A DNA stretch of 24,000 nt, taken from the NCBI GenBank assembly GCA_027366635.1, contig DAHXNE010000037.1, forward strand, positions 24,207 to 48,206, read 5' to 3'. Positions within the stretch are counted from its first letter, which is position 1. Every line of letters starts with the position of its first letter. Below the pieces are notes generated by a model. The model was not told the origin of the DNA and did not search any database. It saw nothing but the letters and a program-made list of their open reading frames with translations. Made by a program: the position numbers and the translations under genes. This DNA is from Gammaproteobacteria bacterium (GTDB taxonomy: Bacteria; Pseudomonadota; Gammaproteobacteria; Steroidobacterales; Steroidobacteraceae). Positions 1-17,507 of the stretch are shown in pieces.

Positions 1-934
1 GGCGGAACTGCTTGTCGCGGGTCATGCAGTGGCGCCAGAACTTATCGATGCGCTTGCTGTTGGTGAGGTAGTTCCAGGGGCCGTAGCTCGGCTGCCACTC
101 CTTCTCCGCGCACATCATCGGCTCCTCGTGCGAGGTGCCCATGATGATGCCGTATTTATTGGCCAAAATCGGATTCTGCGGGTCATCGACCGCGAAGGCG
201 CTGTTCCACATCGCCGGCCACAGATAGTTGGCGCGCATACGCAGCAGCAGATCGAACACTCTGACATAGAAGTGATGGTTGTAGAGCCCATAGCGCTTGT
301 CGACCCAGTCGGTGAGCGACGGCGCCTCGTCGTTGATGAAGATGCCGCGGTACTTCACGGCCGGCGGGCCCACGACCCAGCGGCCGGGCGCGGCATACAG
401 CACCGCGTGGTGCTTGGGCGGAACATCGGCCCACCAGTACAACGGCGAAACACCGATGTCGTCGGACAGATCGTAGATGCCGTAGATGGTGCCGAGCTCG
501 TCGCTGCCGGCGATGACCAGCGCGCGCCGAATGCCGGGCGCGGGGTTGTCGACCACTTGGGTCACGGTGGCTTCCCACTGGCCCCGAATGGCGCGGACGT
601 CGAGCTTGTGCTCGCGAGCGAGCCGGTCCACCACGCGGCTTTTCCCGAGAGTACCGATGATGACGACGTCTCCGGACGGGGGAGTGGCGGCGTCGATTAA
701 TTGCGGTGTGACGCCGGTGACGCGGTCGATATCCCGCTGCAGGCAGTGCGCGGCGTGGATGACGCCCCACCAATCATGCGGATCTACGTAGAGTTTCGCG
801 GTGGCGCCGTTTCGCGCCAGCCTGAACCCGCCCGACACCGGGACGTACTGGATATATCGCGGCTGGCCGACGGCGTAGCTGGTCGTCGGGAAGGCGGCGA
901 AGGCCAACAGCACGAGAGCTGCCGCAACGCCATG
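1..934 (-). CDS. Glycoside hydrolase family 115-like protein, N-terminal ~311 codons; gene continues past the left edge
   Basis: Absent from the ORF track because it is edge-truncated. Hand translation of the minus strand from ATG 934-932 gives MALRQLSCCWPFAAFPTTSYAVGQPRYIQYVPVSGGFRLARNGATAKLYVDPHDWWGVIHAA...DVVIIGTLGKSRVVDRLA...IRGQWEATV...VKYRGIFINDEAPSLTDWV...DPQNPILANKYGIIMGTSHEEPMMCAEKEWQPSYGPWNYLTNSKRIDKFWRHCMTRDKQFR. The hydrophobic N-terminus is signal-peptide-like. The YRGIFxNDE and GTSHxEPM blocks match my memory of GH115. Confidence 0.55.
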
Positions 935-1104
935 GGAGAATGCCGCGGGCGAGGCGGCCGAACGTCGCGATGGCTTTGACAGGAGGGTTGCCGGGGGCGC
1001 AGGTTCGCCACGGCGATCGCGCCGCTTGCGATTATTTAGCGCGTAAGTCATTGACCGAAAAAATGTTCCGAGCGGTCCGGCGGCGAGGCGTCGTCCGGCC
1101 GCAC

Positions 1105-1314
1105 TCAGAACACGAATTCGATCATGCCTTCGTCCATGGCCTGGATGATCGCCGCTGCCATGTGGGGGCAATATCCCTGCTGGCGCAGGCGAAGCCGTTC
1201 CTGGAAGTATTCGCATTTACAGACCCACAGGCGGTCGTTGCCCATCTGGTAACAGGCAACTTCCTGTCCTTCGATATTGAACCGGAAGATCTTATCAGTC
1301 TCGGTTGAAGTCAT
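1105..1314 (-). CDS. Stand-alone SWIM-type zinc-finger mini-protein (69 aa)
   Basis: Track ORF. It has the CxC-x14-CxH pattern (VCKCEYFQERLRLRQQGYCPHM). Amino-acid composition is balanced, unlike the neighbouring spurious ORFs. GC and third-position GC are locally lower than in flanking genes. Confidence 0.6.
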   Translation of the reverse strand: MTSTETDKIFRFNIEGQEVACYQMGNDRLWVCKCEYFQERLRLRQQGYCPHMAAAIIQAMDEGMIEFVF

Positions 1315-1625
1315 GGCTCTGTGCCGCCTTTTGCCATGGAATCGGTCGGGTGAGCAGAGTATCCCGCGTCCGCCGCGTCGGAGGGGCTGTCGCGTGCTTC
1401 AAATCCCCTCTGGCACGTCGCAACCGGCAGGACGACGTACTATCTTAAACCCGGGTCGGCGGCTGTGGCGCGGGAATTGTTCCGTCCGACCGCAGCACTG
1501 GGGCGCAATGACCTGGGGCAGGCCCGCGCGCGGCGCGATGTGGGGGCCGGGCGCGCCGCACCGCGGACAGATCCGCCAAGTCACGATCACGGTCACGATT
1601 GCTCTGGGAGATGGCGCGGTCGGCT

Positions 1626-3383
1626 TCATGCGGTGGCCGTGCCCTGAAGCTGTGCGCGCCATGACGCGGCGTAGGCGCCGTTGTGCCGCAGCAGGCTGGC
1701 ATGCGTCCCGCGCTCGACGATGCGCCCAGCGTCGAGTACCACAATCTCGTCGGCGTGCACGACGGTCGAGAGCCGGTGCGCGATCATCAAAGTAGAGCGG
1801 CGCTCGGAAATCTCGCGCAGGCGCGCCACGATGTCCTGCTCGGTCCGGCTGTCGAGCGAGGCGGTGGCTTCATCGAAGACATAGAGGATCGGGGACGTCA
1901 GAACCGCCCGGGCGATCGCGACGCGCTGGCGCTCGCCGCCGGAGAGCTTCACGCCCCGCTCGCCGACCTGGGTATCGTAGCCGTCCGGGAGGCTCATGAT
2001 GAACTCGTGAAGGTGGGCGATGCGGGCGGCTCGCTGGACATCCGCGAGGGTCGCTCCGGTGCGGCCGAATGCGATGTTGTAAGCCAACGAGTCGCTGAAC
2101 AGCACGGTGTCCTGAGGGACCACGGCGATGGCTCGGCGCAATTGCAGCAGCGACAGCTGGGATATCGGCACGTCATCGAGCAGGATGAGTCCTCCGTCCG
2201 GCTCGATCAGGCGGGTCAGAAGCCGCACGAGGGTCGATTTTCCCGATCCGCTCGAGCCCACGACCGCCAGTGTGCGCCGCGCCTCGATCCTGAAGCTGAT
2301 GTCTCGGAGTACGGGGCGGCCGCGGCGATACGTCAGGCTGACTTGGTCGAACGCCAGCGCGCCCGGTCCGGTGGGGGCTCCCGCCGGGCTCCGGGCGGCC
2401 GGTTCGGGCGTCTCGCGAAACAGCCCAAGCATAGTCTCGAGCATGGCCATGCCCTGGGAGAAACCCTGCGCGGCGTAGCCGAGCGTCTCGACGGGCCGCA
2501 GCAGCTGCAGCATGTAGGCGTTGACCAGGACGAAGTCGCCAAGGGTCATGCGGCCGGTGCGCACATCGACGGTCGCGTACCCGGTGGTGGCGGCGAGAAA
2601 CGCCGCGAAGATGCTCGCCACGAGCAAGCCGTTACCGGCAAACCGGCGATAGAACGCGACCCATGCGTGCTCGCTGCGCGCCAGCGCCTGTCCGACCCGC
2701 TCCTGCAGCGCCGATTCGGCCGCGAAGTATTTCACGGTCTCGTAGTTGAGCAGACCATCGGTGAGGGCTGCGCTGGCGTGCACGCGGGCGGCGGACGCCA
2801 CGCGCGCAGTCGCACCCAGAGTCGCCGCCGAGTAGCCGAACACCGCCGCATAACATAACAACGCGCCGCAGAACAGGGCGAGGAACACCGGGGGGGCCAT
2901 GCGCCACAGGACCACGATGACCGTTGCCAGCTCCACGGTGACTGGCAGGACCGTGAACACCAGGTGGTGCAGGATCATCTGCAGGCCTTCCAGGCCGTTG
3001 GTGAGCGTCTCGTTGACCGCGCCGGTCTGGCGGTCCAGATGGAAGCGCAGCGGCAGGTGCAGCAGATGCGCGAACAGCCGCTCGCTGAGGGTGCGAAACA
3101 TCCGCCGCTCGATGCGCCCGTACACCATCCCGCGCAATTCCCCGGCCGCCCGGGCGAGCCACTGGCTGAGCGCGTACAGGGCGACCAGCAGGAGCGCCGG
3201 CTCAGATGCCCTGCCGCTGAAGCCGTCGACGATGAGTTTCAGGGCGATGGGGCCGAGGGCCGTCAGCACGGCGGCGCAGATCACCAGCACCAGGACCAGG
3301 GCGAGCCTGCGGCGTACGAACGGCGTGGCTTCCCGATAGAGGATATCGAGCACCTGCGCAAGCCGGGTACCGTTCCCGGACAT
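1626..3383 (-). CDS. ABCB-type half transporter (fused permease + ATPase), Atm1/MsbA-like exporter, 585 aa
   Basis: N-terminal ~300 aa are hydrophobic TM helices. It has Walker A GSSGSGKST, signature LSGGERQRVAIARA, Walker B ILYVFDEATASLD and the H-loop IAHRLST. The ATG at 3383-3381 directly abuts the TAG of the upstream gene (3386-3384). Confidence 0.9.
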   Translation of the reverse strand: MSGNGTRLAQVLDILYREATPFVRRRLALVLVLVICAAVLTALGPIALKLIVDGFSGRASEPALLLVALYALSQWLARAAGELRGMVYGRIERRMFRTLSERLFAHLLHLPLRFHLDRQTGAVNETLTNGLEGLQMILHHLVFTVLPVTVELATVIVVLWRMAPPVFLALFCGALLCYAAVFGYSAATLGATARVASAARVHASAALTDGLLNYETVKYFAAESALQERVGQALARSEHAWVAFYRRFAGNGLLVASIFAAFLAATTGYATVDVRTGRMTLGDFVLVNAYMLQLLRPVETLGYAAQGFSQGMAMLETMLGLFRETPEPAARSPAGAPTGPGALAFDQVSLTYRRGRPVLRDISFRIEARRTLAVVGSSGSGKSTLVRLLTRLIEPDGGLILLDDVPISQLSLLQLRRAIAVVPQDTVLFSDSLAYNIAFGRTGATLADVQRAARIAHLHEFIMSLPDGYDTQVGERGVKLSGGERQRVAIARAVLTSPILYVFDEATASLDSRTEQDIVARLREISERRSTLMIAHRLSTVVHADEIVVLDAGRIVERGTHASLLRHNGAYAASWRAQLQGTATA

Positions 3384-4397
3384 CTACAGCGGCCCGTAGG
3401 CCGGACTCGGCCGCGATGCGCGCGGCTCGGGCTCGGGCGCCGATGTGGGCAGATCCGGGAACAATTCGCCGGTGGTGAGCGCGAAGTATTGTGGTTGCGT
3501 GCGCCGGTGCCGGTCGATCAGCGCGCGCAGGTCCGAACTCGTGACGCCGAACCATCGGCCCACTGTTCCGATCCGCGCCGTCCCGGTTCGCATGGCATAC
3601 CAGGCCACCAGCGCGCGGGCGAGTGCGCCCCGGTGGGTCGGGGCGCAGGCGACGCGGGGCTCGGCATGCAGCACCGTCCACATCACTGCCCGCAGCAGTT
3701 CTTCGGGAGACGGCGCCGGCACGGGCGTGCGGCACCGGCTGCGCGCCGTCTGCCGGAAGGTGCGCTCTCCGATGACGGGCCGCGCGAGCAGGTCCGCGAT
3801 GGCGGGACTGTCGGTGCCTGCCATGAACTCGAAATAGGCGCCGGGACCGACATGACCTAGAGCCTCCAGGGCCGCGCGCAGCGCGCTCAGGACGAAGCGC
3901 GCCGGCGGCGCTCGTCTGCCGCAGTGGATCAGGCTGGAGCTGAACGGATGAGTGCCGGCGCGGCGCCGTGCGCCGGGTGTTTCCCGTCGTTGCACGTAGC
4001 GCACCGCGTAAGGGAGCTTCGCCGGCTGCAGGAGCTGTGCCTTGTACCGGCGCGGAAAGAGCTTCTCGGGCCGCGCTGAGCGAATGTCCTGCCTGAGGTG
4101 GCGCGCATAGCGCGACAGCAGGTCGTGCATCAGCCAGGACAGCGGCGCGCCGCCGCTCTGCAGCACGATCAGCGCGGCGTTCGGCTCCGTGACATAGGCG
4201 TGAACCCAGGCGTCGTATTGCTCGCACAGGTCCCACAGCAAACGCTCGAAGACCTCGACGTGCGGCGCGTGGGCGCGCGGATTCTGCGGGAACCGCCGGA
4301 ACAGGTCCGGGGCATAGAACACGTGGCCGCCGGGCGGGCCGCCGGCGCTCACCAGGTGCAGAGCGCCCGGGAATTCACAGCGCCTGGGGCGTGCCAT
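3384..4397 (-). CDS. Y1 (IS200/REP-associated, COG1943-like) transposase-fold protein lacking the HUH histidines, with a C-terminal DnaA-domain-IV-like HTH; probable domesticated DNA-binding protein
   Basis: The opening MARPRRCEFPGALHLVSAGG resembles the ARxPRIxxPGxxYHVxxRG opening of RayT-like proteins. The position of the NHxHLL (HUH) motif reads EPNAALIVL. An RY(I/V) segment is retained (AVRYVQRRE...HPFSSS). The C-terminus ALARALVAWYAMRTGTARIGTVGRWFGVTSSDLRALIDRHRR is HTH-like. Confidence 0.6.
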   Translation of the reverse strand: MARPRRCEFPGALHLVSAGGPPGGHVFYAPDLFRRFPQNPRAHAPHVEVFERLLWDLCEQYDAWVHAYVTEPNAALIVLQSGGAPLSWLMHDLLSRYARHLRQDIRSARPEKLFPRRYKAQLLQPAKLPYAVRYVQRRETPGARRRAGTHPFSSSLIHCGRRAPPARFVLSALRAALEALGHVGPGAYFEFMAGTDSPAIADLLARPVIGERTFRQTARSRCRTPVPAPSPEELLRAVMWTVLHAEPRVACAPTHRGALARALVAWYAMRTGTARIGTVGRWFGVTSSDLRALIDRHRRTQPQYFALTTGELFPDLPTSAPEPEPRASRPSPAYGPL

Positions 4398-4425
4398 GGT
4401 GTGCTCTGCGAGGCCTGCGCGCGCA

Positions 4426-5292
4426 TCAGCGCGCGCGCGCGGCGTACTCGCCGCAGTCGCGGCCGGTCAGGACCGCGACCACGGCCTGGGTGAGGGCCTG
4501 TTCGAGGCGCTCGTCGAGCCGCGCGTTGGGGATTCTCAGCACCACGTCCCGGCGTTGCCGCTCGATGCGCAACAGCGGCTCGCCCGCCGGGCCTTTCACC
4601 ACGCGGCTCGTGCTTCGCCGAGCGCCGCGCCCGGCGGCGCCGCGCTCGGCGAGCAGCAGCTCATAGACCGACACCGCCGGCGGGCGTGGCATGCGCTGCT
4701 GCACGGCCCGGGCCCGCTCGGCGAGCATACGACGCCGATCGTCACTCCAGGCCTTGTGCAGCTCGACGGCCCACGATTCCAGGATGTCGTGCGGCGTGGC
4801 GAATGCGCCGAGGATGACCGCCGGCAGCTCGGCGAATTTCAACAGCCGGCTAACCTGCGTGGGGGTGATGGCGAGCTCGCGCGCCATCTCTTCCTGGGAG
4901 CCGAACAGATTCCGGCGCAGCAGCTTCGCCAGCCACAAGCCGCGCTCGTAGGCGCTGGCCTGCTTGCGCAGAGTGTTCTCGGCTTCGACGGCCACGGCCG
5001 CTTGCCGGTCCGTGAGTTCGCGGATCTCGACTTGCAGCGCAACCTTCAGCTGCCGGGCGACGAACAGCCGGCGCGTGCCGCAGATCACCTCGATATCGAA
5101 GTCCGGGTCGCCGACGAGCATCCGGCCGATCACCGGAATAATCTGGCCGTCGCGAGCGAAGCTGTCGATTTCGGCCCGGCACGACGCCTCGGTCACGTCA
5201 TCTTCGATCCGCTCATTGAGCGTCCAGATGCGGCAGCGGAATGGATCGGCGGTCACGAGCGGTCCGCAGTCGCGGGCGGGGCGCGCGCTCAC
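4426..5292 (-). CDS. ParB/Srx N-terminal-domain protein with central HTH (ParB-like, no ParA partner)
   Basis: It has DGQIIPVIGR...EVICGTRRLFVARQL (GxRR arginine patch) and ELTDRQAAVAVEAENTLRKQASAYERG. The HTH-like segment is SQEEMARELAITPTQVSRLLKFAELP. The GTG start at 5292 overlaps the upstream TGA (GTGA, 5289-5292). Confidence 0.75.
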   Translation of the reverse strand: MSARPARDCGPLVTADPFRCRIWTLNERIEDDVTEASCRAEIDSFARDGQIIPVIGRMLVGDPDFDIEVICGTRRLFVARQLKVALQVEIRELTDRQAAVAVEAENTLRKQASAYERGLWLAKLLRRNLFGSQEEMARELAITPTQVSRLLKFAELPAVILGAFATPHDILESWAVELHKAWSDDRRRMLAERARAVQQRMPRPPAVSVYELLLAERGAAGRGARRSTSRVVKGPAGEPLLRIERQRRDVVLRIPNARLDERLEQALTQAVVAVLTGRDCGEYAARAR

Positions 5293-6212
5293 GGGGCTTC
5301 TCGGTCGGCCCGCGGCTCGTGGGCGTAGAACTCGCGCAGCTCGCGCTCGCTGCTCTCGGGTATGGCATCGACGGCGGGCAGGGTATGCGAGGCGGTTCGG
5401 AACAGCACCGCCGGATCCTGCCCTTCGTATCCGCCCAGGTTGGGACGATGAATGCGATAGCCGAGCAGGTCGCGCAGCGCGGGCGGGAACTGCCGGGCGA
5501 CGGCCGGCGGATAGGACAGGAAGGCGTTCTCGTACTGCTTCAGCCAGCCCAGGCAGTAGCTCAGGATCAACCCGGTCCGGGGCCGGTCACTGCGATTGGC
5601 GCCCGCGCAGTGCGTCAGGGAGCCGAGGTACACCAGCGCTGAGCCGCGCGGCATGGCGGCGACCGTGGCCTGCGCCAGATCGAGCTCGCGCGACAGGCGG
5701 GCGAACTGGCTGCGGGGCCAGAGCAGAGTGGCACCGTTGTCGGCGGTGAAATCCGACAGTGCCCACATGACATTGACCAGGTACTCGATGCCGCCCTTTG
5801 GGCACGGCCACATCTCCTCATCCCGATGCGGCACCTGCTGCCGCTCGCCGGGGTGCAGGCGCACCGCCTGGGTCAGGTTGAGTTGATACCAGTCGCAGTG
5901 CGGACCGAGCACCGCGTCGAGCAGGCTCAGCATCAGCGGATGCAAGATCAGCGCCTGGGAGGCCGGCGATTTCAGCGGCACGGAACCGAATCGGGTGGTG
6001 TTCCAGCCGTAGAAGTCGCCCCGGCAGCGCGGGGTCGCCGTGAACCATGGATCGAGCTGCGCATTCAACTGGTTGACGCTCTCATCGGGCAGCAGCCGGT
6101 CGAAGATGACGTAGCCGTTGGCGCGTAGCAGGTCGAGCGGCGTCGGGGATTGATGGACCCGGGCCGCCGCGTGCGGCGCGTTCCCGCTAATCGACGCGAA
6201 CGGCTCAGTCAT
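5289..6212 (-). CDS. Phytanoyl-CoA dioxygenase (PhyH) family Fe(II)/2-oxoglutarate-dependent oxygenase, 307 aa
   Basis: This is the C-terminal part of the 770-aa track ORF. A plausible start is the ATG at 6212 (MTEPFASISG...), which overlaps the luxI stop as ATGA. The HxD facial-triad motif is QQVPHRDEE and the distal His is in GSLTHCAGANRS. The overall pattern is typical of PhyH. Confidence 0.8.
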   Translation of the reverse strand: MTEPFASISGNAPHAAARVHQSPTPLDLLRANGYVIFDRLLPDESVNQLNAQLDPWFTATPRCRGDFYGWNTTRFGSVPLKSPASQALILHPLMLSLLDAVLGPHCDWYQLNLTQAVRLHPGERQQVPHRDEEMWPCPKGGIEYLVNVMWALSDFTADNGATLLWPRSQFARLSRELDLAQATVAAMPRGSALVYLGSLTHCAGANRSDRPRTGLILSYCLGWLKQYENAFLSYPPAVARQFPPALRDLLGYRIHRPNLGGYEGQDPAVLFRTASHTLPAVDAIPESSERELREFYAHEPRADREAP

Positions 6213-6877
6213 GGCCGTGCTCCTCCAGTGGCTGAGGGGAGCGCGGCGTGCGCCGGCGGCGGCAGGGGGGCGAGGGCCGGCAGGCGCGTGGCGGGGATCG
6301 GTATGCCGTGCTCCCGGCGCACGGCGCGCAGCCCCGCAGGCGTGATGCTCGCGGCGGCGGCCGCAACCTCCTCGGCACCGCAGCCGAGGCGGGGGCCCAG
6401 GGCTCGCGCCTCCCAACCGCAGTGCAGCAGGAGGCGCAGCAGAGCGCGGTTCACCGCGAAGACCACCACCTCGATGCCGTACAGCAGAGCGGTCTCGAGC
6501 ACGCCGCACACCATTTCCCAGATCAGCCGGTGCGGGCGGCCGCCGTGCAGACCGGGCGCCACGCACAAGCGCGACACCTCCCAGACTGTCGGGCCGCGCG
6601 GAATCGCCGCCAGGCATGCGGCCGGGAACAGCTCGCTCATCAGGTGCGGTCGGTCCGTCGGCAGCAGCCGCACCGAGGCGAGCACCGGGCCGGTGAGCTG
6701 GTCTTTGGCGAGCAAATAGACCGTATCGTCGCGGTCGTAGCGGTCGATCTCCCAAACCCCAGTCACGGGAACGTTCCAGCCGGCGCGGTCGACGAATATG
6801 ACTTTGCGCTGGCGATGCATGGTCGCCAGGTCGGCGGCGAACCCTGAGCGGTTCTCGGCGTTGACAAGAAAGATCAT
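6209..6877 (-). CDS. luxI: Acyl-homoserine-lactone synthase, LuxI family (222 aa)
   Basis: It has MHRQRKVIFVDRAGWNVPVTGVWEIDRYDRDDTVYLL...ASVRLLPTDRPHLMSELFP...VWEVSRLCV, the canonical LuxI block order (RxxVF..xxGW, E.D.YD, RLLPT, WE.SR). GGAGG lies 5 nt upstream of the ATG. Confidence 0.9.
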   Translation of the reverse strand: MIFLVNAENRSGFAADLATMHRQRKVIFVDRAGWNVPVTGVWEIDRYDRDDTVYLLAKDQLTGPVLASVRLLPTDRPHLMSELFPAACLAAIPRGPTVWEVSRLCVAPGLHGGRPHRLIWEMVCGVLETALLYGIEVVVFAVNRALLRLLLHCGWEARALGPRLGCGAEEVAAAAASITPAGLRAVRREHGIPIPATRLPALAPLPPPAHAALPSATGGARP

Positions 6878-6937
6878 TGCACCCTCCGGGCTTTCCTACC
6901 GTGGAGCAACCCTGCCGGATGTAGGGGCCGATGAGGA

Positions 6938-6953
6938 TCCTCTGATCAGAGGA
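6938..6953. promoter_or_regulatory. Perfect 16-bp palindrome TCCTCTGATCAGAGGA in the luxR-luxI intergenic region; candidate non-canonical lux-box operator
   Basis: Read directly from the sequence. It lies 61-76 bp upstream of the luxI ATG (6877) and 93 bp downstream of the luxR stop. A palindrome with dyad symmetry is expected for a LuxR-dimer site, but the CTG/CAG half-sites are adjacent to the dyad rather than spaced as in the classical 20-bp lux box. Confidence 0.4.
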
Positions 6954-7045
6954 GGGCACGGCCGGCTGGGCGACCGTCCGTCGGCACGGTTGTTGCATCC
7001 GCCGCGGGCCCGGACTGGCCGCGACCGCGAGGTGCTCGCCTGTGC

Positions 7046-7792
7046 CTACTTCGGTTGCCCATCGGTGCCGCAGATCTGTCCGGTTCTGAGCGCCTGAACC
7101 ACGGCTTGCATGCGTGTGATCACGTCGAAGCGCTGCTTGGCGTGCTCGATGTGGTAGTGGACCGTGACTTGACTCAACCCCAACAGCCGGGCGATCTCCC
7201 AGTCGGTCTTGCCGCGCGCGACGAGCGTCAGGCATTCTCGCTCGCGTGTCGTGAGCTCCGCGGGGCTGCTGTTTTCGATGTGGGCGCGCCCGGTGCAGGC
7301 ATACAGGCACAGGGCCAGCAACCGCACGGTGGTGTAGCTGCGCGGGTCGAGCGCGCCGCTCGCGGGAACCACCGAACACGAGGCTCGGGGCGAACCGGCG
7401 GTCGCGCGGCCGTGGAGCGGGATTGTGTAGCCGTGCGCGATCCCGAAACCCGCCGCTTCCTCTAGAACGATGTGCTGCGCCTCGCTGATCGGTCGCGCCT
7501 CGAAGGCCGCATCCCAGAAGAACGGCCGGACCGTGCGCGTGGCGAGCTGCAGCACCGGGTCGATGCGGAAGTGTCCGGCCGCGCGGAAGCGCCGCGCCCA
7601 TGCGGCCGGGTAGTTGTGCAGTAGCACCGGCCGCAGGGTCGGATCAGCCGGATCGGCGTGCAGGCAGTAGGCGAAGTGGCGGAAGCCGAGAGTCGCGATT
7701 GCGGCGCCGAACGCCGCGTCGATGTCGAGGAGCGAGCTGTGCTCGCTCTGGCAACGCTCGAGGAAGGAGGCGAGCAGTTCGAGATGATCCAT
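7046..7792 (-). CDS. luxR: LuxR-family autoinducer-binding transcriptional regulator (248 aa)
   Basis: The track ORF 7046-7924 is trimmed to the ATG at 7792 (MDHLELLASF...). The N-terminal autoinducer-binding pattern is NYPAAWARRF-x8-IDPV...RPFFW...GFGIAHGYTIP. The C-terminal GerE-type HTH is LTTRERECLTLVARGKTDWEIARLLGLSQVTVHYHIEHAKQRF. Confidence 0.88.
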   Translation of the reverse strand: MDHLELLASFLERCQSEHSSLLDIDAAFGAAIATLGFRHFAYCLHADPADPTLRPVLLHNYPAAWARRFRAAGHFRIDPVLQLATRTVRPFFWDAAFEARPISEAQHIVLEEAAGFGIAHGYTIPLHGRATAGSPRASCSVVPASGALDPRSYTTVRLLALCLYACTGRAHIENSSPAELTTRERECLTLVARGKTDWEIARLLGLSQVTVHYHIEHAKQRFDVITRMQAVVQALRTGQICGTDGQPK

Positions 7793-8179
7793 GGCCTGCC
7801 GGCGCGCCGCGCTCTTCCGGTCCGCCTTCGGGCTGCAGTAAGCTCGGCACTGCGCCGCATGTCTGCCCGGGGAATAACGACGCTCAGCCGTAGAATGGCT
7901 CAGGCGGCCAGCCGATTCACGCACCGCGCGCCCCGTCTTTTGACGCCTTGACAGTGTCGCACCGCAGGAGTAATTCGTCGCCGTGGTTGGGCGGGCGCCG
8001 ATTGGGAAAGCAGGGCCCGACGCTGCGGACGTGATGCAACTTTACAATAACTCCGACGCGGGTGGCGCCAACCCGGCATGACAGGCGTCGTCGGCATGGC
8101 GTAGCCTGCGCCGAGTTCGGATTGGGAGCCTGGCGGGCGCCGCGGGCGCCGCAGCGCGTCAAAGGGGGATCATGGGAGG

Positions 8180-8200
8180 CCGGGCACGGTGCGTGCCCGG
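8180..8200 (+). promoter_or_regulatory. Perfect 9-bp GC-rich stem with 3-nt loop (CCGGGCACG-GTG-CGTGCCCGG) between the SD-like GGGAGG (8174-8179) and ATG 8204; the loop is itself the candidate GTG start
   Basis: Base pairing was checked by hand (8180-8188 pairs with 8192-8200). It may act as a translation-initiation-region structure for the response-regulator gene. Confidence 0.35.
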
Positions 8201-8836
8201 AATATGGGACTGCGCATGATGCAGACGAGGGTGTACATCGTCGCTGCGGACCCGGGGATACGCAGGGGGTTGCAGCTGACGCTCCAAGCGACCGGTTGCC
8301 CGACACGCAGCTTCGCCTCCGGGAGCGCCTTCCTTCGGGACTGCGCGCGCCTGCCCGCCGGCTGCGTGATCCTGGATCTGAGCGTGCCGGAGTTGGGCGG
8401 TTCCCAACTCCTGGGTGAGCTTGCGGCCACCGGCGACCGCTGGCCGGTGATCGTGCTCGCCAAGCATGCCGATCGGGCGCAAGTGGTGCGCGCGCTGCGC
8501 GCCGGCTCCGTGTTGTTGTTGGAGAAACCGATCCGCGCGGCGGAACTGATCGCGGCGGTGCACAACGCGCAGGCGCTGTTGCGCGATGCCGGCGGTCAGC
8601 GGCCGGATCCGGCGGTGGCGGGCGCAGTGACGCTGTTGACGCGGCGCGAACGGCAAGTGCTCGATGCGCTATTGGCATCCGAGCGCATCAAGCAGACCGC
8701 GGCGCGGCTGGGGATCGCCGAGAGCACGGTCAAATCGTGTCGCAAGACGATCAAGAACAAGCTCGGCGTGCACAGCACGGCCCAGCTGATTCAGTTGGTG
8801 ACGCGCGCCGGGGTTGGGATCACGGGGCGACCGTAG
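8189..8836 (+). CDS. Response regulator, REC + LuxR/FixJ (GerE) HTH, with atypical receiver pocket
   Basis: REC region: VYIVAADPGIRR...VILDLSVPEL...VIVLAKHAD...LEKP. HTH region: LTRRERQVLDALLASERIKQTAARLGIAESTVKSCRKTIKNKLG. The start is uncertain. GTG 8189 lies 9 nt after GGGAGG, and in-frame ATGs occur at 8204, 8216 and 8219. Confidence 0.85.
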   Translation: MRARNMGLRMMQTRVYIVAADPGIRRGLQLTLQATGCPTRSFASGSAFLRDCARLPAGCVILDLSVPELGGSQLLGELAATGDRWPVIVLAKHADRAQVVRALRAGSVLLLEKPIRAAELIAAVHNAQALLRDAGGQRPDPAVAGAVTLLTRRERQVLDALLASERIKQTAARLGIAESTVKSCRKTIKNKLGVHSTAQLIQLVTRAGVGITGRP

Positions 8837-8860
8837 CGCAGCCGCGGTTGCCCCCGGGGC

Positions 8861-9437
8861 TCAGCGCCCGCGCCTGGCGCGGGCCATGCGGCGCATGCGA
8901 TTCGAGGCGTCGGTGCTCTGTTGGCGGATTTCGGTGCCGGTGAGGGCCAGGAACGCCTCCTCCAGGGTACTGGTGCCGGTGCGCGCCTTGAGCTCAGCGG
9001 AGCTGCCGAGAGCGACGATGCGCCCGTGATCGATGACCGCGATCCGACCGGCCACCCGGTCGGCCGCGGGCGACGTAGTGGGTGATGAGCAACACCGTGA
9101 CGCCTTCGTCTTTGTTGAGCTGCCGCACGTGCGTCCACAGCTGGTTGCGGCTTTGCGGGTCGAGGCCCAGGGTCGACTCGTCGAGGAACAGGATGCGCGG
9201 CGTGTGCAGCGGGCCGCGGGCGATCTGCGGGCGGCGCATCATTCCGCCGGAGTACTGCTTCACAAGCTCCTCGCGCCGCTCCCACAGACCAAGCAGATCG
9301 AGCCGGGCGCGGGTGCGCTCGCGGCGCAGCTTGCGGGGAACGTGGTAGAGCGTGCCGTGCAGCTCGAGGTTTTCCCACGCCGAGAGGTTCTGATCCAGGC
9401 TCGGATCATGAAACACGATGCCGAAGCGTCTGCGCAC
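8861..9437 (-). pseudogene. ABC-transporter ATP-binding protein remnant (5'-truncated, frameshifted)
   Basis: Two track ORFs (8994-9437 and 8861-9055) together spell an ABC ATPase from the Q-loop region onward: RRRFGIVFHDPSLD...YSGGMMRRPQIARG...ILFLDESTLGLDP...VLLITHY, then after a frame change (A)ADRVAGRIAVIDHGRIVALGSSAELK...LEEAFLALTG. The frameshift lies at about 9066-9076. I found no Walker A in any minus-strand frame of the first ~100 nt upstream (9438-9540); further upstream only one frame was translated. Confidence 0.75.
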
Positions 9438-15153: not shown

Positions 15154-16242
15154 TCAGGCCGCCTCGCTCGGCCGGGGCCCCACGTAGCGGGACAGTGGTC
15201 TGATCAGCCGGCCCCGCAGCACCTGCTCCCGGGCATGGGCGACCCATCCGCCGGCCCGGCCTGCCGCAAAGACGCATGTGAACGCCTCACGCGGGAAACC
15301 TAGAGCCTCGAGAAGGAGGGCGGTGTAGAACTCGAGGTTCGTAAGCAGCGGCCGCCCTGGCTTGTTGCGGGAAAGCAGTTCCAGGGCGGCGTGCTCCACC
15401 GCCTCCGCCAGCCGCAGCCGGGCCGGATCGAGCCGCCCGGCCTGCGCGAGCCGCTCGAGCGCTCCCTTGAGGGCATCCGCTCGCGGATCCCTTACGCGAT
15501 AGATCCGGTGTCCGAATCCCATCAGCCGCTCGCCGCGGCTGAGTGCGGCCTCGAGCCACGGCCTCGCGGCCTCGGGCTCACCCACCGCATCCAGCATGTC
15601 GAGGACGGGCCCCGGTGCGCCACCGTGCAGCGGGCCCTTGAGCGCGCAGATCGCGCCGATCAGCGCGGAGGTCAGTCCGGCTCGCGTGGAGGCGATGACC
15701 CGAGCTGTGAAGGTAGACGCGTTGAGGCCGTGATCCACCGCGCTGACCAGGTAGCGATCGAGTGCGCGTGCCTGATCCGGATGCGGGGCTTCTCCGTGCA
15801 GCATTCGCAGCATGTCCGCCGCGTGCCCGAGCCCCGGGTCGGGCCGGATCGCCTCCAGGCCGTGAGCGCGGCGAATCACGGCCGGCGTGAATACGGCGAG
15901 CGCGGCCACCAGGCGGAGCGCCGTGGAGGGGTCATTGCCCTCCTCGAACCGGCTCAGGAGCGTGCGGACGGCATCCACCGGCGGCTGCTCGGCCAGCTGC
16001 GCATCGGCCGCACGCGATTGCTCGAACACCTGCAGTCTGGCCGCTCCCAAGCCGCGGGCGATCTGGTCAGCGCCCGCGCTCTCGGGAAAGAGCCCCGCCC
16101 AGAGCAGCGCCAGCACGTCCTCGTACCGGCAGCCGATGACCAGCTCGTCGAGTGAGCGCCCGCGAATGACGAGCCGTCCCGCCTCGCCGTCCACATCCGA
16201 CAGGGTGGTCTCCGTCGCGATGACATCGTCCAGTCCACTCAT
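15154..16242 (-). CDS. Citrate synthase family protein (short, type-II-like, 362 aa)
   Basis: It has VIATETTLSDVDGEAGRLVIRGRSLDEL, LVSAVDHGLNASTF, LKGPLHGGAP and GFGHRIYRVRDPRA (the citrate-synthase signature region). Confidence 0.85.
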   Translation of the reverse strand: MSGLDDVIATETTLSDVDGEAGRLVIRGRSLDELVIGCRYEDVLALLWAGLFPESAGADQIARGLGAARLQVFEQSRAADAQLAEQPPVDAVRTLLSRFEEGNDPSTALRLVAALAVFTPAVIRRAHGLEAIRPDPGLGHAADMLRMLHGEAPHPDQARALDRYLVSAVDHGLNASTFTARVIASTRAGLTSALIGAICALKGPLHGGAPGPVLDMLDAVGEPEAARPWLEAALSRGERLMGFGHRIYRVRDPRADALKGALERLAQAGRLDPARLRLAEAVEHAALELLSRNKPGRPLLTNLEFYTALLLEALGFPREAFTCVFAAGRAGGWVAHAREQVLRGRLIRPLSRYVGPRPSEAA

Positions 16243-16302: not shown

Positions 16303-16331
16303 CTTGATTGATTCGATCAACGCGAGGGTGC

Positions 16332-17507
16332 ATGAGCTGGCTGACCGCGTCGGAGGCTTTGAATTTGCTGGGCGTGCGGCGCCAGACGCTGTACGCGAAT
16401 GTCAGCCGCCGGCGGATCCGTGCGCGTCCCGATCCGAAGGACCCGCGGCGAAGCCTCTATCACGAAGCCGACGTGCAGAAGATGGCGCGCAGCCGCCCGG
16501 GCCCGCGCAAGGCGGAGCGCATCGCAGCCGGCGCGATGGAGTGGGGCGATCCGATTCTGCCGTCGGCGATCTGCGCCGTGGCTCACGGACGGCTCTGGTA
16601 TCGGGGTCACGATGCCGTCAGGCTTGCCGACACACGCGCTCTCGAAGACGCTGCGGCCATCCTGTGGGATTGTCAGGAAGTCAGCTTCCCGGGCGACCTT
16701 CGGCAGGCTGTCGAGCGTGGCCCGGTGCCCGCCGGACGCGGCAGCGCGGCAGCCGGCCCTGCGCTCGCCACGATGTTCGCTGTCCTCGCCGGCCGGGCGG
16801 GCCTCGACCCGCCGTCACATGGGCGCTCGCCGGCCGTTCTGCGCAGAGAGAGCGCGGAGGTGCTGGCCACGCTCGCGAGCGCCGTTGTCCGTCCCGGACC
16901 CGATGTCCCGCTGCACGCGCGCCTCGCCACTGCCTGGCGGCGCCGCCAGGCGGCGGATACCCTGCGCCGGACGCTGGTGCTGCTCGCCGATCATGAGCTC
17001 AATGCATCGACTTTCGCGGTGCGGGTGACGATCTCGACGGGCGCATCGCTCGCATCGGGTGTCCTGGCAGGCCTGGCCACCCTGAGCGGTCCGCTGCACG
17101 GACGGGCGGCGCTCGGCGTGCTCGAGCTGGCGCGCGCCGCTGGAGAGCGGGACGCCCGGGTTGTGGTGCGCGAGTGGCTGACGGGCGGCCGCCCGTTGAG
17201 CGGATTCGGTCATCCGCTGTACCCGCAAGGGGACGTGAGGGCGCAAGCGCTCCTCGAGGCATTCGACGTGCCCCCGGAATACCAGGCATTACGCAGGGCC
17301 GTCGAAGAGATCGCCGGCGAGCGTCCGAGCGTTGACTTTGCGCTTGCGGCCATGACCGCCTGCTTTGGCCTGCCGCCCGATGCGCCTCTGGTGCTCTTTG
17401 CGATCGCCCGCAGTGCGGGGTGGCTGGCGCACGCCATGGAGCAGGCTTCAGCGGGGCACCTGATCCGGCCACGTGCGCGCTACGTCGGGCCGCCGCTAGG
17501 AATCTGA
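16332..17507 (+). CDS. Citrate synthase family protein fused to an N-terminal excisionase/MerR-like HTH (about 391 aa)
   Basis: The track ORF starts at TTG 16308; the ATG at 16332 (MSWLTASEALNLLGVRRQTLYANVSRRRIRARPDP) is preferred. The N-terminus is HTH_17-like. The remainder is citrate-synthase-like (LLADHELNASTF, LSGPLHGRA, GFGHPLYPQGDVRA, ARSAGWLAHAMEQ). Confidence 0.8.
   Translation: MSWLTASEALNLLGVRRQTLYANVSRRRIRARPDPKDPRRSLYHEADVQKMARSRPGPRKAERIAAGAMEWGDPILPSAICAVAHGRLWYRGHDAVRLADTRALEDAAAILWDCQEVSFPGDLRQAVERGPVPAGRGSAAAGPALATMFAVLAGRAGLDPPSHGRSPAVLRRESAEVLATLASAVVRPGPDVPLHARLATAWRRRQAADTLRRTLVLLADHELNASTFAVRVTISTGASLASGVLAGLATLSGPLHGRAALGVLELARAAGERDARVVVREWLTGGRPLSGFGHPLYPQGDVRAQALLEAFDVPPEYQALRRAVEEIAGERPSVDFALAAMTACFGLPPDAPLVLFAIARSAGWLAHAMEQASAGHLIRPRARYVGPPLGI

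Follow-up and report, generated by a model that had tools for sequence, protein, structure and literature searches.

A luxRI quorum-sensing locus of soil Steroidobacteraceae and its candidate link to a neighbouring lasso-peptide cluster

Results

In this study, we analysed a stretch of 24,000 nucleotides from a member of the Steroidobacteraceae (the window), in which six genes, luxR, luxI, phyH, parBl, y1l and abc, all lie on the minus strand, at the coordinates given by an initial annotation. The luxR gene (7046..7792) encodes an AHL-binding LuxR-type transcription factor of 248 aa (Pfam Autoind_bind 1e-30 and GerE 2.7e-14), and stands upstream of the cassette in 15/15 related loci with that side visible. 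The 222-aa product of luxI (6209..6877) is an acyl-homoserine-lactone (AHL) synthase according to Pfam Autoind_synth (6.8e-22; 78 bits against a cut-off of 24) and the NCBIfam TraI-type AHL synthase model (2e-20), and its translation shows R24, F28, W34, D45, D48, R70, F84, E100 and R103, which we take to be conserved LuxI-family positions. Between the two genes lies a lux-box-like perfect palindrome of 14 bp, CCTCTGATCAGAGG (6939..6952), centred ~68 nt before the start codon of luxI, with a single occurrence in the window where 0.05 would be expected by chance. A variant of this box (CCYCTGWTYAG...) is found at the equivalent place in every related locus, with one site per locus, upstream of luxI.

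The four remaining genes encode a PhyH-family Fe(II)/2-oxoglutarate dioxygenase of 307 aa (5289..6212; Pfam PhyH 1.2e-23), with HRD and the distal H visible in its translation; an orphan ParB-CTPase-like DNA-binding protein of 288 aa with a GTG start (ParBl, 4426..5292); a 337-aa protein joining an HUH-less IS200/RayT-fold domain to a DnaA-domain-IV-like HTH (Y1l, 3384..4397); and a 585-aa ABCB-type half-transporter exporter that is Atm1/MsbA-like (ABC, 1626..3383; Pfam ABC_membrane and ABC_tran). A 770-aa open reading frame at 5289-7601 was rejected as a gene, being a high-GC read-through of the PhyH frame. The identities had first been assigned by eye, and Pfam/NCBIfam, a structure model and the matches of relatives bore out all of them, including the hardest, the 337-aa protein. 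The four junctions read off the sequence were also as described: an ATGA overlap between luxI and phyH (6209-6212), a GTGA overlap between phyH and parBl (5289-5292), a 28-nt gap between parBl and y1l (4398-4425), and a TAG that abuts the ATG of abc at the end of y1l (3381-3386). No promoter-like site was found within the region scanned, the five-gene block contains a single terminator-like hairpin, situated in luxI, and the hairpin count over the whole scan was not above shuffled expectation. Judging by the spacing and the lux box, the five genes from luxI to abc would form one translationally coupled transcript under quorum-sensing control. Their layout is not due to chance: 16 distinct related loci, all from uncultured soil Steroidobacteraceae, have the genes in the same order and similarly close together, with proteins 46-88% identical to those of the window. 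A search among relatives for luxI loci lacking the parB-like, Y1 and ABC genes, which the initial annotation had linked to a recent insertion, was negative; the association of luxI with the cassette genes is old and maintained and does not stem from a recent insertion.

Outside the window, 2-7 kb beyond the ABC gene, lies a lasso-peptide cluster (precursor, B and C), found downstream of the cassette in 13/13 loci reaching far enough. The window's own lasso locus begins ~5.2 kb past the left window edge, with a GH115 gene and two others between abc and the cluster (~6.8 kb). Wherever the sequence continues past lasso B-C, it goes on to an S9 isopeptidase-like gene and a TonB receptor. The precursors have in common the leader LGxVSxETx and a Thr at -2, and in 11/12 the ring would be closed by an acidic residue at core position 8 or 9. 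One lasso cluster from this family, that of metanodin from Steroidobacterales, has been expressed and confirmed (PMC12670498). The lux box is found only upstream of luxI and is absent from the lasso promoter; therefore, any quorum-sensing effect on the peptide genes would have to be indirect.

Proximity of this kind could be a matter of descent, with luxRI controlling ParBl, Y1l and ABC for unrelated ends (metal/thiol export, nucleoid-associated regulation) and the lasso cluster being merely syntenic. We regard this as rather unlikely, with several observations in its favour: the window-type loci are one vertically related Steroidobacteraceae clade whose synteny extends from ilvD as far as the TonB receptor, and adjacency there is partly phylogenetic inertia; the 6.8 kb of other genes intervene in the window genome; ParBl homologues of ~48% identity stand alone in unrelated contexts; and ABC is most similar to Atm1-type metal/glutathione exporters, its best full-length solved match being NaAtm1 4mrn (7e-115), with McjD not among the best 60 of 288 solved matches. 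However, ABC orthologues of 56-65% identity lie inside lasso clusters, in three distinct arrangements; the window's ABC shares 56-57% identity with the ABC genes of the L062 and L055 lasso clusters and 65% with that of L022.

Y1l likewise argues against mere descent. It has no Pfam or NCBIfam match, but its structure model (pLDDT 81, pTM 0.82) places the N-terminal domain with IS608/ISDra2 TnpA and RayT 4er8 (Foldseek, TM 0.55-0.67, target-normalised), and its relatives match Bac_DnaA_C (PF08299), one of them also Y1_Tnp (PF01797); the HUH motif is absent throughout the family. Homologues of Y1l flank lasso clusters in 23/24 more distant soil loci, which are without luxRI or ParB. In these 23 and in L019, also without luxRI, a divergent Y1l-A/Y1l-B pair stands directly upstream of lasso A-B-C, and L019, the only distant-type locus with annotated flanks, has different neighbours from the window-type loci. 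Further, a conserved element, gTTnnTGnnTGGCAC, is located ~310 nt upstream of the lasso precursor gene, and its copy number tracks that of the Y1l paralogues: two copies, 43-44 nt apart, are present in 20/20 distant loci and L019, all with two paralogues, while most single-Y1l loci have one copy, which is degenerate in three. On the other hand, most distant Y1l-bearing lasso clusters carry no ABC or ParB-like gene.

Another reading, and one that we hold to be unlikely, is that the locus tailors and exports its own signal: PhyH or a sulfotransferase would modify the AHL, ABC would export the less diffusible product, and ParBl and Y1l would regulate quorum sensing. This would suit the single lux-box promoter region common to all five genes and the slot directly after luxI, entered through the ATGA overlap, which holds different small-molecule-type enzymes across lineages (PhyH, or a sulfotransferase in L003 and L005) or is empty (L006, L017, L018, L098-L100). 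The nearest solved relatives of PhyH, the natural-product tailoring oxygenases DhiD, AndA, TlxJ and SptF, also act on small natural products. Against it, 7/16 cassettes are without any tailoring gene, the quorum-sensing operon contains no conserved Y1l-type motif, and ParBl, Y1l and ABC persist both in L016, which keeps luxR and the lux box with luxI reduced to a remnant, and in L022, which has ParBl, a Y1l paralogue with ABC after it, and the lasso cluster, but no luxRI; elsewhere, too, lasso clusters devoid of luxRI carry ABC orthologues and Y1l homologues. Because they are present without luxI in these two loci, and because Y1l flanks the distant clusters, the DNA-binding proteins and the exporter track the lasso cluster, and Y1l and ABC belong with it rather than with luxI. 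The initial annotation had offered signal tailoring and export with a second regulatory layer, and was half right in this: an added layer is plausible, whereas neither the exporter nor the DNA-binding proteins follow luxI. Signal tailoring is possible for PhyH only and may be true of it, as its position beside luxI and its likeness to small-molecule oxygenases fit AHL tailoring as well as peptide tailoring.

ParBl matches TIGR00180 parB_part (1e-18, 67.8 bits against a cut-off of 58.45; NCBIfam), with a weak SopB_HTH match, and its structure model (pLDDT 81) is closest in fold to KorB in the KorB-KorA co-complex 8qa9 (TM 0.72, target-normalised), Noc, Spo0J and the SopB HTH. The ParB-like fold and nucleotide-pocket motifs are retained, GxRRLFxA being present in 20/20 aligned family members and ENxxR in 19/20. 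The transposase fold of Y1l, the best scores of LuxI against TraI-type models and the scores of ParBl against plasmid ParB/SopB/RepB models could indicate what the initial annotation had also considered, a module domesticated from a mobile element that serves maintenance or segregation and responds to cell density; TraR control of repABC would be the analogy. That idea is now largely refuted and appears very improbable: within 10 kb of the locus there is no ParA, nor, among the called genes, any replication-, integrase- or transfer-type Pfam family; the ParA-binding motif occurs in 0/20 aligned ParBl family members, and no parS-like site or repeat was found; the whole Y1l family is without HUH; plasmid-record matches are limited to short ABC fragments; and the chromosomal position is conserved across the 46-88% protein divergence. 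ParBl, which is missing from the L099 cassette, is tied to the lasso cluster more loosely than Y1l and ABC.

Discussion

The observed gene identities and folds, together with the conserved motifs, the synteny and the co-occurrence, are probably, by a modest measure, best explained by a luxRI quorum-sensing unit that is fused, in one tight operon, to accessory genes of the neighbouring astexin-type lasso-peptide locus. The interpretation put forward in the initial annotation is, as a whole, partly supported; it was made without sight of the flanking DNA, and both of its functional readings lack the context that turned out decisive, beyond the window. That quorum sensing can control natural-product clusters is well established (e.g. 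BtaI/R), and the locus would most likely place lasso-peptide regulation and export under cell-density control. The initial annotation knew of no described quorum-sensing operon of such make-up; our literature searches agree, having turned up no account of luxRI joined physically to the accessory genes of a lasso cluster.

In such a circuit, LuxI would produce AHL, and at high cell density LuxR-AHL would bind the lux box at 6939-6952 and drive luxI-phyH-parBl-y1l-abc, with regulation presumed to run in that direction. Induction would thereby autoinduce the signal while raising Y1l, the ABCB exporter and ParBl, the last as a putative ParB-CTPase-like clamp. Y1l, a catalytically dead protein of HUH-transposase fold with a DnaA-type HTH, would act as a DNA-binding factor specific to the lasso cluster, its probable target being the element upstream of the precursor gene. 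ABC would serve as the D-type exporter of the cluster, presumably with the peptide as substrate, and ParBl may add a clade-specific regulatory layer, possibly acting with Y1l as KorB does with KorA. The product of the variable slot after luxI, where there is one, would be a tailoring enzyme for the peptide or the AHL.

Parts of this scheme have precedents. KorB-KorA of RK2, VirB of Shigella, BisD of ICEclc and Noc are ParB-CTPase-fold proteins that regulate genes rather than segregation and act across kilobase distances (PMC11790492, PMC10770331, PMC12409273, PMC12704722). Like them, ParBl has the ParB fold and P-motif residues without ParA, and parBl adjoins the gene of a second HTH protein, much as KorB is functionally paired with KorA. 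It differs in that no parS-like loading site was found and CTP binding is putative, in its context, which is chromosomal and not a mobile element, and in its adjacent partner, a 337-aa transposase-fold protein and not a small KorA-type repressor. That partner has the two domains of the TnpA_REP/RAYT subclass 2.1 (TIRYT), whose Y1 transposases carry a Bac_DnaA_C/HTH domain at the C-terminus (PMC6006769), in the same order, an IS200-like Y1 fold and then a DnaA-domain-IV-like HTH. In contrast to TIRYT transposases, the Y1l family is without the HUH metal-binding motif, and because y1l genes occur in single copy and in linkage with a biosynthetic cluster, Y1l has the appearance of a DNA-binding protein domesticated from a transposase, no longer of a transposase itself.

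ABC shares with McjD/CapD-type exporters the half-transporter layout, in which a membrane domain of six helices at the N-terminus precedes an NBD at the C-terminus, and resembles McjD in its genomic attachment to lasso clusters, although by sequence it is closest to NaAtm1/ABCB7 and, contrary to mcjABCD, abc is not beside gene C and would be transcribed with regulators. The neighbouring locus is astexin-like in its short precursor with Thr at -2 and, in most cases, an acidic residue 8/9 closing the ring, its fused B (Transglut_core3), its C (Asn_synthase), its inversely oriented S9 peptidase and its TonB receptor; relative L015 also shares Asn at core position 1 with metanodin. Astexin-type and metanodin clusters have been described as lacking a D exporter, and no dedicated regulators of such kind have been reported. 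Here, an ABC exporter and Y1l proteins are attached and, in the window clade, ParBl and luxRI as well, none of which is mentioned in the metanodin paper (PMC12670498). The quorum-sensing unit itself is similar to canonical LuxI/R, TraI/R and BtaI/R, with an Autoind_bind/GerE regulator, an Autoind_synth synthase with conserved catalytic residues and, as in canonical LuxR/LuxI circuits with their lux box and autoinduced luxI operon, a palindromic box upstream of luxI. Where it departs from those circuits is in the company that luxI keeps: there is no rsaL/rsaM-type regulator, and its predicted operon partners instead include the orphan ParB-CTPase-like ParBl, Y1l as a dead HUH-transposase/DnaA_C protein, and an ABCB exporter.

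Gene order and conservation of the luxI block

The six genes first recognised by eye in the initial annotation were all confirmed by Pfam and NCBIfam profiles and by fold comparison. On the minus strand, luxR (7046-7792; Pfam Autoind_bind, 1e-30, and GerE, 3e-14) is followed by luxI (6209-6877; Autoind_synth, 7e-22), a PhyH dioxygenase gene (5289-6212; PhyH, 1e-23), parBl (4426-5292), encoding an orphan ParB-CTPase-like protein, y1l (3384-4397), encoding a 337-aa HUH-less protein with a Y1-transposase fold and a DnaA_C-type HTH, and an ABC exporter gene (1626-3383; ABC_membrane and ABC_tran). ParBl scored above cut-off for TIGR00180 (parB_part, 1e-18) and weakly for SopB_HTH, while Y1l matched no Pfam or NCBIfam profile. 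The four junctions from luxI onwards lie exactly where they had been placed: an ATGA overlap at 6209-6212, a GTGA overlap at 5289-5292, a 28-nt gap at 4398-4425 and a TAG directly abutting an ATG at 3381-3386. From this spacing we infer one transcript and translational coupling for the five-gene block. No promoter-like site came up in a consensus scan of 1000-8400, and the only terminator-like hairpin within the block lies inside luxI, in a scan whose total did not exceed the shuffled expectation; no Rfam family was found in the window. A 770-aa open reading frame at 5289-7601 (minus), which starts upstream of luxI, ends with the PhyH gene and could mislead gene callers, was rejected as a high-GC artefact of the PhyH frame staying open across luxI, the true PhyH start being the ATG at 6212.

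The window belongs to a 78-kb soil-metagenome contig. We found 55 close homologues of Y1l, and in a scan of one genome per species the family was confined to metagenome-assembled genomes labelled Steroidobacteraceae or, more coarsely, Gammaproteobacteria or Proteobacteria. Mapping the six window proteins onto all fetched loci delineated 16 distinct cassettes, in which LuxR was present in 15/15 with that side visible, LuxI in 14/15, ParBl in 15/16 (missing in L099) and Y1l followed by the ABC exporter in every one. Identity to the window's proteins ranged from 46% (LuxR) up to 88% (PhyH), and the fusion is therefore old and maintained. A recent unrelated insertion, which the initial annotation had expected to show itself by relatives lacking parBl, y1l and abc, is thus contradicted, and the cassette is very probably a genuine, conserved unit led by luxI. 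One locus, L098 (13530-17005), is a decay variant: its ABC gene is shortened, its lasso C gene is truncated and inverted, and IS66-type debris is present.

Quorum-sensing genes and the variable slot

LuxI reached 78.3 bits against a cut-off of 24 for Autoind_synth (PF00765), and its translation carries R24, F28, W34, D45, D48, R70, F84, E100 and R103, which we take to be the conserved catalytic positions of the family. By domain and residues it is a predicted LuxI-type AHL synthase, with an AHL as its predicted product. LuxR is likewise a predicted LuxR-type AHL receptor with a candidate palindromic operator upstream of luxI, the 14-bp lux box CCTCTGATCAGAGG at 6939-6952. This palindrome has its centre some 68 nt ahead of the luxI start and occurs once in the window, against 0.05 chance matches expected. 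Each related locus has one variant of it, always upstream of luxI or of a luxI remnant, and a search for a second lux box, at the lasso promoter and through the rest of the loci, found none. At L016 (6780-7121), luxR, the lux box and approximately the first 20 nt of luxI are kept, the start codon has changed from ATG to ATA, and parBl follows directly; its LuxR probably acts as a solo regulator driving the module. Divergent from luxR, the window encodes a response regulator (8189-8836, plus; Response_reg and GerE). In relatives, a hybrid histidine kinase of about 1000 aa, a 124-138-aa protein and often a haem-oxygenase-like gene lie between this regulator and luxR, and all three are missing from the window's genome. 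Further along, divergent genes of the citrate-synthase family occupy 15154-16242 (minus) and 16308-17507 (plus), the latter encoding a citrate-synthase domain to which an N-terminal HTH_17 match is fused, weak at 26.2 bits against a Pfam cut-off of 27.

The slot after luxI is variable among the 16 cassettes, holding a PhyH gene in seven, a Sulfotransfer_1 gene in two (L003 and L005) and nothing in the other seven. The PhyH translation has the iron ligands HxD...H, and its nearest solved relatives are the natural-product tailoring oxygenases DhiD, AndA, TlxJ and SptF. The substrate of the PhyH protein or sulfotransferase may be either the peptide of the neighbouring lasso cluster or the AHL; the presence of these enzymes gave no clear signal against precursor sequence, a comparison confounded by phylogeny.

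The neighbouring lasso-peptide cluster

In 13/13 cassette loci reaching far enough, a lasso cluster lies 2-7 kb past the ABC gene. It comprises a precursor gene of 27-31 codons and, by Pfam, B (Transglut_core3) and C (Asn_synthase) genes; wherever the sequence continues, an inverted S9-type peptidase gene, whose Pfam match is weak or absent in some loci, and a TonB-dependent receptor gene come next. The precursors have a common leader, M-I-x-L-G-x-V-S-x-E-T-x with Thr at -2, and 11/12 cores carry an acidic residue, Glu or Asp, at position 8 or 9, the exception being L003, which has none at positions 7-9; Lys stands at core position 3 in most. By gene content, the neighbouring locus is a predicted lasso-peptide biosynthetic cluster of astexin-type architecture. 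Expression of one such lasso peptide from the Steroidobacterales, metanodin, has been achieved, with confirmation by mass spectrometry (PMC12670498). The cluster of the window's genome begins about 5.2 kb beyond window position 1, with a GH115 gene and two others inserted between it and the ABC gene.

Two further features of these clusters deserve mention. The predicted core at L015 (12657-12752), NAKISFTPEPV..., has Asn first. In the description of metanodin, which the same bacterial order produces, an Asn opening the ring was reported to be without precedent (PMC12670498). Between the ABC and precursor genes, divergent from the latter, is a gene (L001, the window's own contig region, 17762-19090, minus; L099 13162-14478; L100 12814-14187) for a protein of 400-458 aa with weak FhuF and IucA_IucC (siderophore-synthetase family) matches, conserved only in the window's clade. 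Seen alongside the Atm1-like pump and the TonB receptor, this protein may hint at some role connected with metals, or at an additional modification that forms an amide.

Y1l and its association with lasso clusters

Since the Y1l family profile matched nothing among PDB sequences, a fold search was needed. The Y1l model (pLDDT 81, pTM 0.82) has an N-terminal domain for which Foldseek returned the IS608/ISDra2 TnpA transposases and the REP-associated transposase RayT (TM 0.55-0.67, target-normalised), and a C-terminus resembling DnaA domain IV. In line with this, Y1l relatives match Bac_DnaA_C at 1e-8 to 6e-10, and one distant relative matches Y1_Tnp (PF01797) at 5e-8. The HUH position reads N-A-A-L-I in the window's protein, and His-x-His is found in 0/16 aligned family members. 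The gene is present in one copy per locus at a conserved position. The Y1-fold/DnaA_C family as a whole numbers 3992 representative clusters at E <= 1e-3. A third word-indexed protein search with the distant alignment added only five further proteins, on short contigs, and the broad alignment proved too divergent to scan loci with.

Loci outside the cassettes relate Y1l to the lasso genes rather than to luxRI. L022 occupies the same chromosomal site as the cassettes (ilvD, response regulator, hybrid kinase, haem-oxygenase-like gene) and has ParBl, Y1l-B (a 304-aa paralogous DnaA_C protein), an ABC orthologue 4 nt further on and the lasso cluster, with no luxR or luxI at the locus. L019, from a more distant member of the Steroidobacteraceae and in another neighbourhood, has Y1l-A and Y1l-B genes as a divergent pair immediately upstream of lasso A-B-C; neither luxRI nor ParBl nor ABC was found there. 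A metagenome scan seeded with Y1l-B yielded 75 loci, 24 with enough sequence on the relevant side; in 23 of these 24 distant soil loci the order is Y1l-B (divergent), Y1l-A, precursor, B, C and isopeptidase. Y1l proteins are thus a hallmark accessory of the lasso-cluster family seen here, and a functional tie between Y1l and the lasso cluster is very probable.

The best solved match of the ABC protein is Novosphingobium Atm1 (NaAtm1; 7e-115), it is also near ABCB7, and McjD is not among the best 60 of its 288 solved matches. Orthologues with 56-65% identity are embedded in the lasso clusters of L022, L055 and L062; in the latter two, the ABC gene (56-57% identical to the window's) lies between the precursor and Y1l-A. 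We therefore regard the exporter as a recurrent add-on to the Y1l-type lasso-cluster family, with peptide transport as its predicted function.

These distributions bear on two other explanations. That the genes are neighbours by descent only would be in keeping with the extensive synteny within the clade, and may still hold for ParBl; for Y1l and ABC it is contradicted by the distant loci, and we consider it unlikely overall. The initial annotation had also proposed a module for AHL tailoring and export, to which the position of the tailoring slot is well suited; however, it leaves unexplained both the persistence of the module without luxI and the association of the ABC and Y1l families with lasso clusters, and is in our judgement also unlikely.

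ParBl

ParBl combines a ParB-CTPase N-domain with an HTH. Its model (pLDDT 81) superposed best on KorB from the KorB-KorA co-complex (8qa9; TM 0.72 normalised to target), with further fold matches to Noc, Spo0J and the SopB HTH. Among 20 aligned family members (42-100% identity), GxRRLFxA is present in 20 and ENxxR in 19, and the ParA-binding motif (L/F/I)G(K/R)G(L/F/I), as defined in PMC12704722, in none. No ParA-type gene was found within 10 kb in any locus inspected. In 1-9000 we saw no convincing parS-like palindrome besides the lux box; a site could sit outside the region scanned.

These findings, and those for Y1l, speak to the proposal that the block is a domesticated mobile-element maintenance or segregation module under cell-density control. 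The module has neither a ParA within 10 kb nor a ParA motif, no replication- or integrase-type Pfam family occurs among the called genes, the HUH motif is dead and the chromosomal position is fixed. Likewise, megablast of 1626-7792 against PLSDB, addressing a plasmid origin, returned only ABC-motif fragments of 40-90 nt. The proposal is effectively refuted, and we hold it to be highly improbable.

The parBl gene is missing from L099 (9198-11041), where y1l starts 144 nt after luxI, and is therefore dispensable in at least one lineage. ParBl is essentially missing from the distant soil Y1l-B loci, and homologues at about 48% identity stand alone in unrelated contexts. ParBl and luxRI are thus additions particular to the window's clade, and any specific role for ParBl is proposed with much less confidence than the tie of Y1l to the lasso cluster. 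Regulation across kilobases by ParB-fold proteins, acting singly or together with an HTH partner, is known from KorB-KorA, VirB and BisD (PMC11790492, PMC10770331, PMC12409273); by analogy, a partnership of ParBl and Y1l is plausible.

A candidate element upstream of the precursor gene

Some 270-310 nt ahead of the lasso precursor gene we found a conserved element, gTTnnTGnnTGGCAC. On the window's contig it occupies L001 19232-19246, roughly 4.8 kb outside the window on its left; within the window it is absent, the only match being a chance-level one with three mismatches. Its copy number goes with that of the Y1l paralogues. In 20/20 distant loci and in L019, all of which have two paralogues, the element is present as two direct copies with a spacing of 43-44 nt, whereas most single-Y1l loci have one copy, with degenerate forms in L015, L016 and L022. 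In L019 and L026-L096 it is situated between Y1l-A and the precursor gene. Such an asymmetric direct-repeat box would suit an HTH of the domain-IV type, which is expected to bind as a monomer, as at a DnaA box.

We also considered a sigma-54 reading of the TGGCAC within this element. The -24-like part is kept, but a correctly spaced -12 GC is present in no more than roughly half of the sites, and among the annotated genes of the loci we saw no enhancer-binding protein. For these reasons we treat the element as a factor-binding site, with sigma-54 as a minor alternative.

A GC-rich hairpin, GCCGC-N7-9-GCGGC, occurs some 30 nt before the ribosome-binding site of the precursor gene at L001 19505-19525 and in 11 other loci. 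As a conserved structure it was dropped: four pairs are predicted, two with compensatory change, and covariation is weak.

Discussion

The odd-looking genes of this operon are accounted for by an ordinary neighbouring biosynthetic cluster. On balance we lean towards a composite explanation, in which quorum sensing is joined to lasso accessory functions. LuxR-AHL bound at the lux box would drive luxI-phyH-parBl-y1l-abc, so that the signal would be positively autoregulated alongside induction of Y1l as a DNA-binding factor for the lasso genes, ParBl as an extra regulator and the exporter. The lasso promoter has no lux box, so that the peptide genes would at most be controlled indirectly, via Y1l and/or ParBl.

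A more elaborate and speculative version, which we judge improbable as a whole, makes the lasso peptide a quorum-sensing-regulated public good under a two-protein DNA switch of a new kind, with a cycle of pumping and re-import. Here, LuxR-AHL would induce the orphan ParB-CTPase clamp and the domesticated, HUH-dead transposase/DnaA-HTH protein together; the HTH protein would recognise gTTnnTGnnTGGCAC and recruit or lock the clamp, as KorA does KorB, activating lasso genes several kilobases away. The Atm1-like pump would secrete the peptide, and the TonB receptor, isopeptidase and IucA/FhuF-like protein would re-import and process it in the manner of a metallophore. If true, this would provide the first function for the Y1-fold/DnaA_C family, with its 3992 representatives at E <= 1e-3, and a ParB-CTPase regulator would for the first time be connected with quorum sensing and with a RiPP cluster.

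Under the composite explanation, too, the locus has several uses. It offers a large family of domesticated, dead HUH-transposase/DnaA-HTH proteins a first setting in which a role can be tested, along with a candidate DNA target, and ParBl would be a chromosomal, biosynthetic-cluster-linked addition to the few proteins of ParB-CTPase fold repurposed for gene regulation. It also provides clues to how lasso clusters of the isopeptidase type are controlled and their products exported, the link to cell density being consistent with a shared, re-imported product. This may have practical application, as co-expression of Y1l and ABC, or addition of the cognate AHL, might raise the poor lasso yields reported for this uncultured lineage (PMC12670498).

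As to known systems, our literature search bore out the claim of the initial annotation that no quorum-sensing operon of this kind had been described: we found no coupling of luxI with a ParB-like protein, a Y1/DnaA_C protein and an ABC exporter, and no description of Y1/DnaA_C proteins as companions of lasso clusters. The closest architectural counterpart of Y1l is TnpA_REP subclass 2.1 ('TIRYT'), which has the same two domains, whereas the loss of the HUH motif seen in Y1l is absent from the description of that subclass (PMC6006769). Thus, although all component classes are known (LuxRI, lasso clusters, orphan ParB-CTPases, Y1/DnaA_C proteins and ABCB exporters), their wiring is not a known one.
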